64,000 bases of DNA, from positions 96,001 to 160,000 of IMG/VR virus record IMGVR_UViG_3300020577_007160. One strand, written 5' to 3'. The notes beneath the pieces were generated by a model. It saw nothing but the letters and a program-made list of their open reading frames with translations, searched no databases and was not told where the DNA came from. Made by a program: the position numbers and the translations under genes. This document shows, in pieces, positions 9,259-57,437 of this stretch (within the stretch, counting starts at the first letter, position 1; every line of letters begins with the position of its first letter). Origin of the DNA: a virus (lineage: Duplodnaviria; Caudoviricetes).

Positions 9259-10101
9259 TTAAAGCCCTAAGTCCATTGGCATTTCTAAAATTGAATTCGA
9301 TGAAATGCCGAGATTACTCGATGCAATATCGAATGCAAATCCAGCTGCGGATTCTAATATATTTTCCTTTACTTCCAAGTCGGAAATTGAAGATTCTAAT
9401 TTAGCCCAACGGATTCTTTGATTATCCATTTGTTCCGCGAATTGTCCATCTTCAATGACTGCGAAGTTTATTTGAGTCTCAAGATATCGTGGTGTAAGAA
9501 ACCTATTGAAATTCTTTTCAGTTACGTCGAATCCTTTTAATTTTCCTCGAAACCATCGTCTTCCGAGAATCAAATAAACATCTGGAGGTGCGAATGTACC
9601 TTGTCGTTTTTCTTGAGATTCCTGAGATATTTCTGAAGTAACAGAACTCAATAAATTTGTTGCACTGGATTCCAGGGAAGACGTCAAAGTTCCGAGGGAA
9701 ATACCCTCACCTGACGTGAATGGTGCAAGAGTATTTTTAATGAAATTTCCAGCTTCAAATACTTTTTGAAAAGGTCTAGAATTAGATGGCAATGTCAAAG
9801 TCTCAAGAATTGCCTCAATACCAAGAACTCCTAAAGACCTTCGAACTACGGAAGGACTAAGGAGTTCTGTTGCAGAAGTCTCAAACTGTAAGGTAAAATT
9901 TAATTCCTTTTGATTATTTCCACTCCAAGTTAATATTTGAGTAGGATATAATGGTGCATCCAAGGTCTCATAATTAACATCTTTTTTAACAGAAATTTCA
10001 ATAGGGTTAAATTGAAATTTCAGAGTTAATCCAATATCTGGAGCATGAAACATCCCCTTGAGAACTGAATTCCGAAGTTTTGATATTTCTTCTCCAAACA
10101 T
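9259..10101 (-). CDS. Tail tube initiator (CIS tube-like) protein
   Basis: FQFNPIEISVKK, LNFTLQF, PPDVYLILG, F...LTPR motifs; downstream of tape measure. Confidence 0.7.
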   Translation of the reverse strand: MFGEEISKLRNSVLKGMFHAPDIGLTLKFQFNPIEISVKKDVNYETLDAPLYPTQILTWSGNNQKELNFTLQFETSATELLSPSVVRRSLGVLGIEAILETLTLPSNSRPFQKVFEAGNFIKNTLAPFTSGEGISLGTLTSSLESSATNLLSSVTSEISQESQEKRQGTFAPPDVYLILGRRWFRGKLKGFDVTEKNFNRFLTPRYLETQINFAVIEDGQFAEQMDNQRIRWAKLESSISDLEVKENILESAAGFAFDIASSNLGISSNSILEMPMDLGL

Positions 10102-10107
10102 AAATTA

Positions 10108-10525
10108 TTAAAGTTTAAAAATTCTAGGATTAGTTACTCCAGTTATAATTTTGAATTCTTTAAGGGCTAATTCAAAAGTTTGATAATCTTCTATTAATGG
10201 CTTATTTCTTATCTTTTTTCCACTTGGAAGAGTAGTGAATCCTTTAACAGATTCTATGTGAAGAAACCATGTATCATCATTTTTATAAACTGAAGCTACT
10301 AACTCATCTCTATTAGAGACTGCAGTATAAATTACTCCGTATTCCATATCAGGATCGTGGTCTGCTTGTAAAAGATCCATTTTAGTTCCACAAATCCAAT
10401 TCAAACTAAATAAATTAAATCCACTTATTTCATTTAATCTTTTTCTTGGATTACTTTCTACAATATTTTCTAGAATTTCAAGTCTCTCAGAGAGAGAGTT
10501 TTGAACCTGTTCGTGTGTTACGCAT
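10108..10525 (-). CDS. Leader-bearing hypothetical protein, frameshifted at (CT)5-GA
   Basis: ATG 10525 gives MRNTRTGSKLSL* (TGA 10487-10489); shifted frame continues SERLEILENIVESNPRKRLNEIS... into ORF 10108..10404. Confidence 0.6.
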
Positions 10526-10543
10526 TTTATTCTCCTGTTGTGT

Positions 10544-11033
10544 CTAAATTAATTCAAAATCATAAGAATTATGATAATTCAATGGATTTTTTACAACATG
10601 TTTCATCCAACTATCTCCTGAAGTATAATTATCAGCATTGGCTCTCCAAAAAATCTGAGAATATCCATCATCATAATTTAGATAAAAGGATAAACCAGTA
10701 TTATCAAGAATTATAGTACACATTTTATTTTCCAATGAATCTTCTTCAAGATCTAATTTTTCGATTATTATTTGTTCTAATATGGAAGAGATTTTAACAT
10801 AACCGATATAAGGTTCTTGTGGTTCTCTTTTCATTTTAGTAATTCTCTCCGCACCTTCAAAAGTTCCCCAATCTTCTGGAGTAAACCTTTTGAGTTTAAT
10901 ACCATTGGAATATCTCAATACTGGAGGGCAATCGTAATTGTGTTCTTTCAAAGAACCCTTACTCTCTATGATTCTTTCTAATTTTTGAATCCGTTCAGAG
11001 AGAGAGTTTTGAACTTGTTCTTCTGTTGAGCAT
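10544..11033 (-). CDS. Leader-bearing hypothetical protein, frameshifted at (CT)5-GA
   Basis: ATG 11033 gives MLNRRTSSKLSL* (TGA 10995-10997); shifted frame continues SERIQKLERIIESKGSLKEH... into ORF 10544..10951. Confidence 0.6.
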
Positions 11034-11076
11034 TTTACGTCCTTTTATTTAAAATTGTATTAAAACTATATAACTG

Positions 11077-14000
11077 TTATCGTGGCAAAGTTTCCAAACC
11101 GTACTGACGACCTTGTTCTCGACGAATAATGGTCTTGATTTCTTCTAATAATTTCTTCGCATCATAATTCGGATTAACAGAATTTATTTGAATTGACCCT
11201 GCATTGAAATTAATTGTAACAGAATTCGATGAAGAAGTATTTTTAGGACTCTTTTCTTCAGACAAACCAACAGTCTTACGAACCCCAAAAACAGTATCTG
11301 TGGGTTCAAAAAATACGGGTTCTTGTCCTGGACGCACGACGAAGTCCTTACCAGGATTAGCGGCTGACCCACGCTTGATGGATTCAGGTTCTACTGGCTC
11401 TTTTTTATTCGTAGATTTTATGAAATTATCAAGAGTTTCTGGAGTATCTTTCTTCTGTTTTTTATCTGAAATTTTAACAAACTTATCAAGATTATCTATT
11501 GATGGCTTTTCTTCCTTTTCCTTAGGAATTGCCTTCACAACTTTATTGATAGTCTCTGATATTCCTTTATTCTTATTCTCTGAAACAGAACCTTTTTCTG
11601 GTACAAAATTTGTTATTTCTTTTATTGGTTCTTTCTTCTTAGAATCCGGAGTTTCTTTGGTGGTAGTTGCGAGTTTATTTAATTCTTTCGTGGGTTCTTT
11701 TTTAGTTACAGTATCTCGATTTTCTTTCTTGTAAGAATCCGGAATAAACTTATCCATTTTCTGGGACATGGGTTCATTTGAATTCTTAATAGAAGCCAAT
11801 AATTCATCAAATTTTGGATTGGCGAATCCAATGAATTTCAAAGATTTTCCTTTATCAAATGTCCCCATACTATTTGGGAAAGTATTTCGACTGACTTTCA
11901 CGCCTTCCCTGCCTTCCCCGTCAGTGCCAGTATTTCCTTCTACTGTAGTAAATTTGCCTCCTGCCACGCTGTCTACGAGTCCTAAGTGTCCTGAGCCAAA
12001 GGAATTCTGCTTCATGAAATCTTCAAGATTATCTACTGATTTGTCCTTGCCCCATGCTACCAGTGCTCCAGGTTTTGGATTGGTCTTGCTCAATTCAAAA
12101 TATCCGGATTTTCCAGCATTGGCTAAAGTTTCTTGAGCATTGAAACTGAACACATTTTTTATCTTACTCCATACGTCAGGTAGGGACGAAAATATACCCG
12201 AATATGTTGTTTTGGCGAAAGCAGCACACCATGCCAGACCTTCACGGATTTGATCATCAGCGAGTTTCGAAATTGAATCTGAAGAATATCCAGCATATTT
12301 CTTCATCATTTTATTGAAGTTTTCATTTTCAAAACCAAGATTCCCCACTGATACTTTTTTATCGGAAGCTAATTCTGCTATTCCTTTTTCTTCTGCTTCC
12401 TTTTTTGTGAGTAGAAGATTGTTACCTTTTTTATCTGTGATATATTTTCCAGATTTGTCTTTCGCATAATATCCCTGAACTTCTTTCGATACTTCTTTTT
12501 GACCAATGAATTGTTGTGCAAAAGAAGTTAAACTACTGGTAATATTTTCTGGAGTATAATTCTTGGGTAAAAATTCTGCAACATCTTTGATTTCGTCACT
12601 TCCTGCAATTGTTTTAGCAATGCCCGCTACTGGATTCATTCCTGACGTAACAGTATTGACTACTACGTCTTTCGCCAGCCCTACTCCGGCTCTTGCTGCA
12701 TCCATGATATTACCCTTCTTTATTGATTCAATAAATCCAGGTTTTTTACTTACAATTGCTTCATCCTTTTCATTCATAGGATATACTTCACCATTTTTAA
12801 CAATGGCATCATTCACCGCTGGTTTCACTGCGGAATCCTGAAACAGCTGATTCATAGATGCTAAATTTTCCTTCATTACTTCTCCTGTGGCAGAGGATAT
12901 CCAACCAACATATTCCATGGCAGATTTTTTCTGCAACGTTGCCGCTTCTTCACCTTCAGCTTTTTTGCGACTTAAATCACTTTTTGAAAGACTCTGAATA
13001 GCAGAAACCAACTTCATTATTTCATCTAATTTAGCAGTTTTCTCTACCCCATCCTTCATTTTCCGAATATCCGGTAACTGCTTATTGACGTCATATAATT
13101 TATTCTTCATGGTTTCAAATGCCATTGAATACGCAGAACCAGCTTCAATGCCATAATCCCCAAATGATTTCATCTCATCATTCAGGTTATTTACCATAGA
13201 ACTCAGATCAGTAGATTTAGATAAATCTGCGAAAGACGAACCAATGCTCGCAACAATTGACTGAGTTTTTTCTTTTACTCCGTCATCAATAATTAACTTG
13301 GAAATATTAACATTAGGTAATTTATTCAAGACATCAATAACCATGTTTACTGTTTTCTTGAACATTCGAATCATTGGATCAAAGAATCCGTCTCCAAATA
13401 TTAATTCTCCTAAATTAACCATTGAACCAAAACCACCTGATAATAACTGTCCGATTTTAGATGGAATTGAACCAAAGAAATTCATTATGGTATCAGGTAA
13501 ATTCTTTAAATTTGTCATTACCTGATCAGACGCTTCACTGAAAGCAGCACCAAATTTTCCAGGTAATTCTGAGAAGAACTTTGTGAAAGAATTCCAGGCA
13601 TCTTTAATCCAACCAACAATTGAACCAAGAATATTCCCTAACATTGTTGAAAATGTTTTCCACAGATTTTTCAAAGAATCCCAAATGTAGGTTCCAATTG
13701 AACTGAAAATATCAACTATTAACGTCCAAATTCTCCCAAATAATGATTTAACAAAATCCCATAATGCACCAAAGATATTTTTGATATTTTCCCAAGCACC
13801 TGAAAAATCTCCAGTAAAGAGATTTTTGAACATATCAAAAATATTACCAAATACATTCCCGATTAATGCTCCAATATCTTTGAACACGCCGACAACAAAA
13901 TCAATAACTCCACTCAGAATATTTTTTATGAGAGTTATTGCATCAGAAAATCCTTGAACTAAACCACCAAGAAAATTCATAAATGGATTATCAGAACCCA

Positions 14001-16548
14001 TCAAACTCGATGCAGCATCTGACAAAAATGAAGAGATCCAGGTAAGAACTGAATTGAAAGCATTCTTAAAAGTATCCCCAATGAAGCTACCAATTGTATC
14101 AAAAATATCAAATATTTTTCCACCAGCATCCATGAAATCCCCAGAAAACAACGAAGAAAAGAATTCTCCGATTTTTCCAATGATATCCCCTGCTGCGGTG
14201 ACTGCACCTTGCAGTACGGAAATGATAGAATCCCATCCTATTTTCAAGCCAATCAAAACATTCCCCAACCATTTTAAAAATGGATTATCGGATTTCAATA
14301 ATTTATCAGCTATGCCACCAATCCAATCAGATATCCATTTCCCCAATAATCCAAGACCTTCTGATAACATTTTCCCTAATTCTGGACCAATATAAGCTAA
14401 TTGTTCTGCTACCCAAACTAAGGCATCCCAGAGCATTGATGCCAGTCGTGGAGTCCAATCAATGATTATCTGAATAGCACCAATTAATAATTTCTTCAGT
14501 ATTGGTACAATCATTTTCAACAAGCCACCAAGAGTTTTCAATAACTCAGGAAATAATGCCTGAACTTTTGCTCCAAGAGTCTTGGCAAAATTGACAATTG
14601 AATCAATGATTTTTCCTGCAGCAGCAACGACTGCTGGAATTAATTTTGGTAACTGAGAATTGAACCATTTGAAAAATCCAGTAATCAGGTCAAATGCCTT
14701 ACCTACGAATCCAGTTATTCCATCAATCAACATCGAAATTATATCTCCAAGATCTGTCACTCCTCCTGCCAGATCCCCTTTGAATAATTTCTTTATCATT
14801 GAACCAATTTTTTGACCAATGAATCCAAGGATAAATATTATAGGATAAAATATATCTCGAATTTTACCAACAATTGATTTGAAGAACTCCGTAGCACCAC
14901 CCATAGATCCTGAGACGTTCCCTAGCAACCCCCCAATGAACTTGATGACAGTTCCCATCATCGAACCGATTGCCTGCCCTACTGCTAAAATCGAGTCCTT
15001 ATTGGCTTCTATTGTATTAAATATATTTGTTAAAACATCTTGCATTGCACGGAATGCACCCGAACCCGAAATGGTTTGTTGTAATTTTTCAAAGAATCCA
15101 GATATTGAAGCAATCTGACCTTCAGTTGAGTTCTTCATCCTATCAGCATTTCCTGAGTATTGCTTGTCAAGAAAATCTGCTGTTTTTTGCATACGTTCCT
15201 GGTAGGTGCTCGCACCTGCTAATGCTTCCTGCAGTGCTGCTGGATCAATGGTGTTCCCGAAGGACTCCGTGAATGATTGAAAATCCCCACCTTTCGCCAA
15301 CGCAGTCATTGCGGACATAGTGGATTGAAGGTCTTTTCCTGGACCAGTGGCAGCGTTGAGAACTCCTTTGAAATTAACTTTATCTACGCTCAAACCCATT
15401 TCCCCCAATTCAGTGGTATAGGATTCAAGATCGTCTTTTGCTAATCCATATTGCTGGGACATATCATTGATAAATCCGGTTGCTTTTTTAGCATAGTCAG
15501 AACTACCAAAACGATTTGTCATTTTGACAGTCATTTTTTCTAATTCCTGACCAGATTTCCAAGCAGATTCGAATGCCTCTTTGATGGAGTATATTCCCCC
15601 TGCTGCACCACCAATGGCTGCTAACGGAGGAATAAGATTTGTCAAATTGAATGCTTGATCTTTTATTGTTGAGGAAACATTCTTAAATCCTGATACCATT
15701 TTACCAGAAAGATCCTGCATATTCTTAGAAATATTAGAGAGTCCTCTGCCAGCCATTTGAGCAGAAGACAATAATCCTCCTGGAATCGTTGAAAGTCCCC
15801 TGCCTAGGGATTGTGCTGTCCCCCCAATTTTCGACAAACCTGACCCAAATACGCTGCCAAAATTTGATGCTTTCTTTTGATTCTCCGTGATTTCATTTCC
15901 CATTTGAGCCAATGACAAGACTCCATTATCAAATTCATCATTCATTCTTCCTGTTTGAGCAACAACACTATCCAAAGATGAATTTAAATTATTGAGTATA
16001 TCTTCTTGTTCCTGGTTAAAATTTTGAAGACCATTATTCAGATAATCAAATCCTGCGAAGTCTTCCATGTCCTGACTCATGGAATTTACAAATTGAGACT
16101 TTGGATTATAAGCAGTGAAATCATCCAGATCATTCATAGATTCTTGTAAAGATTTTTTAATATCTTTTTGATTCTTTGAATTTAATCTATTGGCTACTTC
16201 TCCTGTTCGAGCAAAATCCGTGAATGTTTTTCCAGATTCTTTTAATTTCTTATTATACTTAGTTTGTTCTGTTTGAGAATTTTTTAATGTTTTATTAAAA
16301 TCTTCTATTTTCTTTTTATTTTTATAATGTGTAGAATATTTTTTATTTAAACCATCATATCCATGTCCAACATCATCCAAACTTTTTTTAAGATTTGAAT
16401 CAAATGTTCCAGTTGTAGTACCGAGATCTTTAACTTTTCCTATCCAATTTTGGATAGATGCAGTTATGCTCTGGATTGTTTTATTAGCAGAATCCAGAGT
16501 AGCAACATCAACACTAAAACCTAAATCTATTTTATTTGGATCTTTCAT
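11077..16548 (-). CDS. Tape measure protein with C-terminal CHAP-type peptidoglycan hydrolase domain
   Basis: 1823 aa, G/A-rich amphipathic W/F-periodic repeats; AWCAAF...GHLGLV...TVEGNT CHAP motif. Confidence 0.9.
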   Translation of the reverse strand: MKDPNKIDLGFSVDVATLDSANKTIQSITASIQNWIGKVKDLGTTTGTFDSNLKKSLDDVGHGYDGLNKKYSTHYKNKKKIEDFNKTLKNSQTEQTKYNKKLKESGKTFTDFARTGEVANRLNSKNQKDIKKSLQESMNDLDDFTAYNPKSQFVNSMSQDMEDFAGFDYLNNGLQNFNQEQEDILNNLNSSLDSVVAQTGRMNDEFDNGVLSLAQMGNEITENQKKASNFGSVFGSGLSKIGGTAQSLGRGLSTIPGGLLSSAQMAGRGLSNISKNMQDLSGKMVSGFKNVSSTIKDQAFNLTNLIPPLAAIGGAAGGIYSIKEAFESAWKSGQELEKMTVKMTNRFGSSDYAKKATGFINDMSQQYGLAKDDLESYTTELGEMGLSVDKVNFKGVLNAATGPGKDLQSTMSAMTALAKGGDFQSFTESFGNTIDPAALQEALAGASTYQERMQKTADFLDKQYSGNADRMKNSTEGQIASISGFFEKLQQTISGSGAFRAMQDVLTNIFNTIEANKDSILAVGQAIGSMMGTVIKFIGGLLGNVSGSMGGATEFFKSIVGKIRDIFYPIIFILGFIGQKIGSMIKKLFKGDLAGGVTDLGDIISMLIDGITGFVGKAFDLITGFFKWFNSQLPKLIPAVVAAAGKIIDSIVNFAKTLGAKVQALFPELLKTLGGLLKMIVPILKKLLIGAIQIIIDWTPRLASMLWDALVWVAEQLAYIGPELGKMLSEGLGLLGKWISDWIGGIADKLLKSDNPFLKWLGNVLIGLKIGWDSIISVLQGAVTAAGDIIGKIGEFFSSLFSGDFMDAGGKIFDIFDTIGSFIGDTFKNAFNSVLTWISSFLSDAASSLMGSDNPFMNFLGGLVQGFSDAITLIKNILSGVIDFVVGVFKDIGALIGNVFGNIFDMFKNLFTGDFSGAWENIKNIFGALWDFVKSLFGRIWTLIVDIFSSIGTYIWDSLKNLWKTFSTMLGNILGSIVGWIKDAWNSFTKFFSELPGKFGAAFSEASDQVMTNLKNLPDTIMNFFGSIPSKIGQLLSGGFGSMVNLGELIFGDGFFDPMIRMFKKTVNMVIDVLNKLPNVNISKLIIDDGVKEKTQSIVASIGSSFADLSKSTDLSSMVNNLNDEMKSFGDYGIEAGSAYSMAFETMKNKLYDVNKQLPDIRKMKDGVEKTAKLDEIMKLVSAIQSLSKSDLSRKKAEGEEAATLQKKSAMEYVGWISSATGEVMKENLASMNQLFQDSAVKPAVNDAIVKNGEVYPMNEKDEAIVSKKPGFIESIKKGNIMDAARAGVGLAKDVVVNTVTSGMNPVAGIAKTIAGSDEIKDVAEFLPKNYTPENITSSLTSFAQQFIGQKEVSKEVQGYYAKDKSGKYITDKKGNNLLLTKKEAEEKGIAELASDKKVSVGNLGFENENFNKMMKKYAGYSSDSISKLADDQIREGLAWCAAFAKTTYSGIFSSLPDVWSKIKNVFSFNAQETLANAGKSGYFELSKTNPKPGALVAWGKDKSVDNLEDFMKQNSFGSGHLGLVDSVAGGKFTTVEGNTGTDGEGREGVKVSRNTFPNSMGTFDKGKSLKFIGFANPKFDELLASIKNSNEPMSQKMDKFIPDSYKKENRDTVTKKEPTKELNKLATTTKETPDSKKKEPIKEITNFVPEKGSVSENKNKGISETINKVVKAIPKEKEEKPSIDNLDKFVKISDKKQKKDTPETLDNFIKSTNKKEPVEPESIKRGSAANPGKDFVVRPGQEPVFFEPTDTVFGVRKTVGLSEEKSPKNTSSSNSVTINFNAGSIQINSVNPNYDAKKLLEEIKTIIRREQGRQYGLETLPR

Positions 16549-57128: not shown

Positions 57129-57437
57129 TTAATAACCAGCTATATCCAATTTCTTTTTGATATAAGCAATTACCTTTTCAGCTACGTCTTCTTCCTCGTA
57201 ATTCATTTGTCGTTTCCGCCAATAATCTAATTTTTTTACATCATCACTGGTAGCAATTTTTGAAAAATTACGTATATCAGTATAATCTAATTCATCATCG
57301 TTATGCTGGGACACATCTTGTAGAAATGCATCAATTCTACCTGGTAACTTTGAAGTTACATTAGCTTCCGCAATCCCTACTTTTTTCTCAAGTCTCTCTA
57401 ATCTTTCAACTAGAGAAGAAGTTCTATTTCGCACCAT
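57129..57437 (-). CDS. Leader-bearing hypothetical protein (outside structural cluster)
   Basis: MVRNRTSSLVERLERLEKKVGIAEA. Confidence 0.7.
   Translation of the reverse strand: MVRNRTSSLVERLERLEKKVGIAEANVTSKLPGRIDAFLQDVSQHNDDELDYTDIRNFSKIATSDDVKKLDYWRKRQMNYEEEDVAEKVIAYIKKKLDIAGY

Follow-up and report, generated by a model that had tools for sequence, protein, structure and literature searches.

CT-tract frame breaks in three leader-tagged accessory genes of a myophage with a T4-type head

Two split genes between the tape-measure and tube-initiator genes

The window, the whole 64,000-nucleotide stretch of DNA that we analyzed, forms one part of a phage contig of 179,512 bp (32% GC), nearly all of whose genes lie on the minus strand. 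Coordinates below are those of the window unless marked as genome. A profile search of the genome identified a Gp23-family capsid protein (PF07068, 180 bits) and a T4 gp21-type prohead serine protease (Peptidase_S77, PF03420; 34374..35915, minus strand; 67.2 bits against a cut-off of 27; phrog_207). Portal, terminase and sheath proteins and a LysM/tail-X-like gene are also encoded, and the phage is a contractile-tailed myophage with a T4-type head. Its capsid protein is only 39% identical to those of the nearest isolated phages, and no DNA-level match was found in the phage collection. In the 513-aa protease, the catalytic domain (residues 23-162) is joined to a coiled-coil-rich tail of about 350 aa, so that a single protein may serve as protease and scaffold. 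The first 77 bases of the contig (genome 1-77) recur at its end (179436-179512), which makes them either a short terminal repeat or, in a genome that is circular or circularly permuted, an overlap left by assembly.

Two genes, here called A and B, sit on the minus strand between two tail genes. Directly upstream of A lies the gene for a tape-measure-like protein of 1823 aa (11077..16548, minus strand), whose C-terminus aligns, on visual comparison, with the gene that precedes the tube-initiator gene in related phages. Downstream, a CIS_tube-like (tube-initiator-like) gene (9259..10101, minus strand; a weak match to PF19266) begins 6 nt past the stop of B. Gene A starts at an ATG at 11033, in a TAAAATG context preceded by AGGA. 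This ATG and 11 further codons, MLNRRTSSKLSL, are followed by a TGA at 10997-10995 (zero-frame part 10995..11033, minus strand). Similarly, gene B starts at an ATG at 10525, in a TAAAATG context preceded by AGGAG, and reads MRNTRTGSKLSL before a TGA at 10489-10487 (10487..10525, minus strand). Each zero frame is therefore 12 codons long and ended by the TGA of an AAA-(CT)5-GA cassette, AAA CTC TCT CTC TGA, found on the minus strand at 10995..11009 in A, with (CT)5 at 11006-10997, and at 10487..10501 in B, with (CT)5 at 10498-10489. The 15-mer AAACTCTCTCTCTGA is thus present at 11009-10995 and 10501-10487.

In both genes the leader and the body continue in the +1/-2 frame. The body frame of A (10544..10999, minus strand; 151 codons and a stop at 10544) opens SERIQKLERIIES and carries the leader SERIQKLERIIE followed by Ser; that of B (10108..10491, minus strand; 127 codons and a stop at 10108) opens SERLEILENIVES, with the leader SERLEILENIVE followed by Ser. 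Neither contains an ATG, GTG or TTG between the upstream stop and the leader. The identity between the two genes extends beyond the cassette to a run of 20 nt, GTTCAAAACTCTCTCTCTGA, while the flanks are 67% identical, a run that would arise by chance with a probability of about 0.006. Many synonymous differences separate the leader codons around this core, and the bodies are unrelated past the 13-aa leader.

The N-terminal peptide of A is homologous to those of in-frame paralogues such as MINRRTTLSL and MTNRRSSLSL, and one added CT, giving (CT)6, makes both A and B read KLSLSER. A sequence-only reading of the window had described two genes running from TAAAATG to a stop in an identical cassette, with an ER[IL]xxLE leader and a body in a frame devoid of upstream starts, and had pointed to the gene starting at 57437 as an in-frame parallel. 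This description holds throughout: the flanks and bodies have diverged around an identical core, the gene at 57129..57437 (minus strand; starting MVRNRTSSLVERLERLEKKVG) reads MVRNRTSSLVERLERLE, and A and B are leader-plus-body genes split at the cassette whose fused KLSL-S-ER fits the consensus of six in-frame paralogues.

The leader-tag family and a third broken member

Across the whole genome, at least 24 in-frame genes and three broken ones carry the leader tag, in which ER[IL]xx[LI]E comes after an N-terminus that is short and basic. More generally it takes the form [KRQE][RK][ILVM]xx[LIVM]E, is helical and lies inside the first 35 residues. Starts of tagged genes in the window include 440, 1772, 4342, 6838, 17973, 19902, 20233, 20627 and 20973, as well as 25668, 27604, 28809, 31137 and 57437. 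Nine members form a sub-group with (S/T)LSL right before ER, for example MTNRRSSLSLMERLEKLE and MINRRTTLSLTERLSRLE, and the full consensus (S/T)LSLxER[IL]xxLE is shared by six in-frame paralogues. In this sub-group LSL is encoded by CT-rich codons, and CTC, which makes up just 7.5% of the Leu codons of the phage, nevertheless fills the CT tracts. Several of the tagged genes encode large proteins within tail or baseplate operons and have KRIQILENQLFESLANARKLYSNKI in common.

We counted four tracts of (CT)5 or longer in the genome against 0.1 expected, and 4/4 fall in leader codons of the tag family. Only the tract at genome 63490 keeps the frame; those of A, B and a third gene, C, do not. With the simple-sequence repeats of phase-variable contingency loci the repeat shares a position inside the 5' coding region, where a change of units switches the frame, over-representation and recurrence at several loci. 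No family member was found to be broken outside a CT tract.

Gene C lies outside the window (contig segment L009, 605-984, equal to genome 82104-82483, minus strand) and directly follows an in-frame leader gene (L009, 997-1278). From the ATG at genome 82483 (L009, 984) it reads ATG AAA CAC CAA TCT CTC TCT CTC TTC TAG, a zero frame of nine codons (MKHQSLSLF-stop) containing (CT)6, while its leader and body (LLERIEKLEE..., 116 codons) lie in the -1/+2 frame. With one CT fewer, (CT)5, the gene reads MKHQSLSLLERIEKLEE, with QSLSLLER matching the family consensus. Gene C is thus broken by one extra CT, A and B by one CT too few. No canonical start giving at least 40 aa is present in its body frame, which means that the protein cannot be made leaderless. 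In all three genes, a zero-frame ORF with a good start ends at or next to the shift site and a long ORF follows in another frame.

A promoter-like 14-mer, AGTTATATAGTTTT (11062..11075, minus strand), precedes the ATG of A by about 30 nt and overlaps the end of the tape-measure gene. Exactly or with 1-2 changes, it is found 26-31 nt upstream of the ATG in eight leader genes, A included, the other seven sites being at genome 47390, 57582, 61973, 63552, 66532, 67905 and 81204. The coding strand has 11 copies and the opposite strand 5, and the 14-mer is probably the cassette promoter. Gene B has no 14-mer of its own and would share a transcript with A.

By eye, the tag ends in most members with hydrophobic-x-Glu followed by Ser or Gly (RIIE then S in A, NIVE then S in B). 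Considering this motif together with the T4-type head genes, the tag likely serves for prohead loading followed by gp21-type cleavage after hydrophobic-x-Glu, and the gp21-type protease described above is a candidate for the processing enzyme. A precedent is offered by the internal proteins IPI-III of T4, whose N-terminal capsid-targeting sequence is reported to be cut off by the gp21 prohead protease (PMC3012670, PMC9026906). Like that system, the present one places a short common tag, apparently ending in hydrophobic-x-Glu before Ser or Gly, on unrelated small proteins in a phage with a Gp23-type capsid and a gp21-type protease. In contrast to it, the tag here is a helical, ER[IL]xxLE-based sequence of 17-27 aa with no similarity to the T4 tag, and it is carried by about 27 genes as opposed to 3-4, many of them in tail operons.

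State of the tracts and of the reading frames behind them

The sequence-only reading had listed assembly error at the repeat as an outcome that would refute it. Logan contigs of independent runs, a type of data that cannot reveal minor alleles, were aligned over 9800-11600. Contigs of run X1, which may be the source sample, and of run X2, from a study of 2025, covered the whole stretch, sites A and B included, without a difference. Site B was also spanned gap-free by contigs of two further runs, one from a river (X4, record 5) and one from activated sludge (X7, record 12), with site A outside their coverage. Contigs thus show (CT)5 at B for four runs, each of a different study and two of them represented by short Illumina-length contigs, and at A for two runs. 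Neither a tract-length variant nor an ON allele was seen in these contigs (four runs for B, two for A), in which minor alleles are invisible. In all samples seen, the out-of-frame genotype dominates. Repeats are a classic place for indel errors in sequencing or assembly, yet the same sequence recurs in independent contigs and large genes elsewhere in the genome are unbroken. As far as contigs can show, assembly error is excluded, and we hold an artefact to be highly improbable.

The reading frames behind the tracts look like those of real genes. The body frames of A and B score -3.66 nats per codon versus about -4.0 for off-frame models, and the bodies stay open for 151 (A), 127 (B) and 116 (C) codons at 32% GC, with no second lesion in any. 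By comparison, open frames of at least 137 codons make up 5/11,655 stop-to-stop segments on the non-coding strand. A strain from the sludge run X7, about 4% divergent, differs at five positions in the B body, all five at third codon positions (P ~0.004) and four of them synonymous in the body frame. In the same strain the TTG at 10404, the start chosen by gene callers, is changed to TTA. This evidence for constraint on the B body amounts to five substitutions and does not include the tract length of the divergent strain. Taken together, the data suggest, if on slender grounds, that A, B and C are still in use. The identity of the 20-nt core points to constraint at the nucleotide level or to short-patch recombination, and in combination with the filling of the tracts by the rare CTC codon it suggests the former.

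Among 5.8 billion proteins neither gene A nor gene B has a homologue other than itself, and no significant Pfam or PHROGs match was found for A, B or C. In a full HMMER scan, residues 59-121 of A weakly resemble HYR_4C Ig-like repeats (27% identity; E ~1e-4 for each repeat and 7e-17 for their sum). The matched protein, 1798 aa long, contains 12-13 such repeats, LRRs and a type IX secretion signal of the CHU_C kind. This likeness is a possible pointer to Bacteroidota as the host or as the source of the gene. AlphaFold2 run on single sequences gave poor models (mean pLDDT 53.1 and 46.5).

Relatives were found using the CIS_tube-like gene at 9259..10101 as an anchor. Their tube-initiator genes are 84% to 42% identical to it; in viral_contigs there was no relative of the anchor gene. 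On 7 related contigs the tube-initiator gene directly follows the tape-measure gene with nothing between, and in one relative (L014) a different tagged gene stands directly upstream of it. Relatives carry further tagged genes nearby, for example MKRTILERIEILES... and MEKSLVKRIQNLEEKV..., with LRR-like repeats. Tagged cargo genes occupy other positions in the same tail module (L001, 4867-5448; L002, 2541-3854; L004, 4851-6095; L014, 491-1168 and 2113-2814), which indicates a tag-cargo cassette system that is clade-wide and positionally fluid. Genes A and B, whose orthologues were found neither by protein searches nor at the relatives' loci, are cassettes and not long-standing residents. A search for the CT cassette itself gave no copies in viral_contigs and, with a specific pattern, 0 matches in metagenome_contigs; five metagenome_contigs matches to a looser (CT)5-GAR-leader pattern are chance occurrences in unrelated DNA.

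Interpretation of the out-of-frame tracts

Frame breaks of both signs, one CT gained and one CT lost, argue for slipped-strand mispairing of CT units, and it is very probable that A, B and C all lost their frames in this way. How the genes behave at present is a separate matter. The reading that we prefer, with a probability of roughly 0.4, is a slippage switch or attenuator that works through a polymerase slip of one CT unit. A, B and C are leader-tagged accessory ('cargo') genes in which the CT tract encoding the (S/T)LSL of the tag has lost its frame by removal (A, B) or addition (C) of one CT. According to the preferred reading, ordinary ribosomes would halt after 12 codons in A and B or after 9 codons in C, and full tag-plus-cargo protein would require a one-CT slip of a polymerase, as happens on a minority of templates or transcripts. 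Slippage during replication would yield heritable ON subpopulations, as at the CT repeats of outer-membrane protein genes in H. pylori. Realignment of RNA polymerase could act as well, since a 2-nt slip would keep 8/9 hybrid bp on (CT)5 and 9/9 on the tract of C.

The gene anatomy, the out-of-frame state of the DNA, the tag family and the two opposite indels are shown by the data; we infer that the three genes are still in use and restored by slippage, and read the tract as a switch or attenuator, from bodies that are still intact and apparently constrained. Several observations favor this. A one-CT shift in either direction covers all three genes, which a fixed -2 ribosomal signal does not, and (CT)6 in A and B or (CT)5 in C restores the consensus tag. 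The three long open bodies have the coding signature of real genes, the changes in the B body are third-position and mostly synonymous, and the TTG at 10404 is lost in the X7 strain, while the body of C has no canonical start giving at least 40 aa. The literature provides two parallels and one caution: sabA of H. pylori is turned on and off by CT repeats of 6-10 units in its 5' coding region (PMC2715451) and E. coli transcripts show an enrichment of two-nucleotide deletions at dinucleotide repeats (PMC5574713), but CT-length variation in H. pylori sabA cDNA is no greater than in gDNA (PMC2715451), which speaks against efficient slippage by RNA polymerase. The slippage reading is weakened by the uniform tract length in contigs (where minor alleles are hidden), by tracts of 5-6 units that are short for a high switching rate, by a constraint case of five substitutions only, and by the lack of orthologues showing long-term retention. 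Gain of one CT unit by slippage had also been proposed in the sequence-only reading; it would explain the data at least as well as the -2 ribosomal shift proposed beside it.

In that -2 shift, a dedicated programmed event at CUC_UGA, a small fixed fraction of ribosomes would make the cargo: with UGA in the A site, the peptidyl-tRNA-Leu on CUC would move to the CUC two bases back and continue with UCU GAR, giving ...KLSL-SER.... The sequence does allow this, with perfect CUC-to-CUC re-pairing beside a stop codon, and 'shifty stops' with -2 shifting are on record for E. coli (Weiss et al. 1987, cited in PMC10274946). A 20-nt core shared by adjacent genes with unrelated bodies and synonymously diverged flanks, a tract state constant across the samples' contigs, and intact, constrained bodies would fit as well. 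However, the TGA arises automatically from T plus the GAR of a Glu codon and is therefore no independent signal; it is also an ordinary stop in this phage, where it ends 38/120 long genes. By eye, no SD-like (GGAGG-like) element was seen upstream of the shift sites, downstream structure did not stand out against shuffled sequence (z of -0.08 for A, -1.54 for B and +0.83 for C), and neither Rfam elements nor terminators were found around the sites. CUC is read by no phage tRNA, the sole tRNA gene (genome 175943-176027, outside the window) being a normally called Leu-UAA that fits the dominant Leu codon TTA (43.5%), and there are no orthologues by which conservation could be judged. Gene C needs a -1/+2 shift at the homologous tract, which would involve partial re-pairing of UUC to CUU at -1 or re-pairing of CUC to CUU at +2 without a pause codon, and this opposite shift suggests that the breaks were caused by slippage of CT units and not by a dedicated -2 signal. 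We therefore consider a programmed -2 ribosomal shift unlikely. A wider version, in which deliberately out-of-frame (CU)n tag genes at all three loci would be expressed at a low fixed dose by a 2-nt slip of either tRNA-Leu (CUC to CUC) or RNA polymerase, is doubtful though possible. Quadruplet decoding or a suppressor tRNA finds no candidate in the normally called Leu-UAA, and reassignment of TGA was rejected given its use as a stop and the mere 24-aa peptide obtained when TGA is read as sense.

Frameshifts at repeats are the commonest way in which accessory phage genes break, and A, B and C could simply be dead: the tract would be a mutational hot spot, recent hits would have knocked out two or three genes that a family of 27 can dispense with, nothing would restore them, and the shared state of A and B could reflect one CT loss copied to the neighbor by short-patch recombination. 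OFF states only in contigs, the large family with its strain-specific extras, relatives (84-42%) that have no gene between tape-measure and tube-initiator genes, and the lack of stimulatory signals all agree with inactivation. Against it stand the absence of a second lesion from three bodies with normal coding statistics, the third-position bias of the B strain differences (P ~0.004), the conserved start context and N-terminal mini-ORFs, a core whose nucleotide identity exceeds that of its flanks, and the restriction of breaks within the family to the tract. Inactivation thus appears possible but less than probable. Translation from internal starts or by reinitiation (TTG at 10951 in A; TTG at 10404 or ATG at 10380 in B), which would make the upstream ORF irrelevant, corresponds to what gene callers report in public collections, namely leaderless fragments of 135 aa for A and 90 aa for B, and nothing for C. 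The conserved ER[IL]xxLE, however, lies in the body frame upstream of these internal starts, the X7 strain replaces TTG 10404 by TTA while changing the codons upstream only synonymously, and C has no usable internal start. Leaderless products are therefore very unlikely; even jointly with an artefact they remain improbable, and standard gene callers mis-annotate A, B and C.

The preferred slippage switch has its closest counterpart in the sabA-type repeats of H. pylori (PMC2715451): in both cases several loci of one genome, in mixed ON and OFF states, have about 5-10 CT units among their first 15 codons or so, inside a targeting peptide (in H. pylori the signal peptide of outer-membrane protein genes), and the out-of-frame allele runs into an early stop. 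Unlike those, the present genes belong to a lytic-type phage and have 5-6 units, at the short end of the range, and for A, B and C only OFF alleles and no length polymorphism were seen in contigs. The resemblance to shifty stops (-2, +1) and to the CUU_UGA site of prfB (PMC10274946, PMC11463598) lies in a Leu codon in the P site before UGA, the possible re-pairing in the new frame and a short zero-frame peptide. In contrast, A and B would shift by -2 and not +1 (re-pairing of CUC to UCU at +1 being poor), lack an SD-like stimulator and have in C a sister gene that needs the opposite shift.

Programmed transcriptional slippage is known in IS elements, in dnaX of Thermus and in the paramyxovirus P gene. 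The tracts described here share with those cases a repeat long enough for the RNA:DNA hybrid to re-pair, and insertions together with deletions would suit A, B and C, but the tract is a dinucleotide repeat instead of a homopolymer run. To our knowledge, all established cases of programmed slippage occur on homopolymer runs and a dinucleotide-tract case has not been described. A 2-nt slip during expression, if true, would represent natural programmed +/-2 recoding on a dinucleotide repeat at three loci of one genome. We regard the finding as known kinds of event, repeat-mediated frame switching and shifty-stop recoding, in an unusual place, and as a not yet demonstrated case of recoding.

Should the break be bypassed or reversible, it would be a rare use by a virus of a dinucleotide repeat in a targeting tag to dose or switch virion-loaded proteins, which are likely to be anti-defence or host-takeover factors, and recoding mechanisms, few as they are, would gain a natural -2 or dinucleotide-slippage case. 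Even with dead genes, the encoding of LSL by CT codons makes this cargo family unusually fragile and shapes the turnover of its cassettes. A further observation concerns the same codons. Those for SL-x-ER form an inverted repeat, TCTCTC-NNN-GAGAGA, at genome 57504, 61895, 63476, 66464 and 82744 and at 10486-10498 (B) in the window; one paralogue has the matched inverted pair TCTTTC...GAAAGA, and GAG at the tag Glu is far above its genome-wide share of 19%. This may reflect an RNA or DNA hairpin laid over the tag, or shared ancestry.
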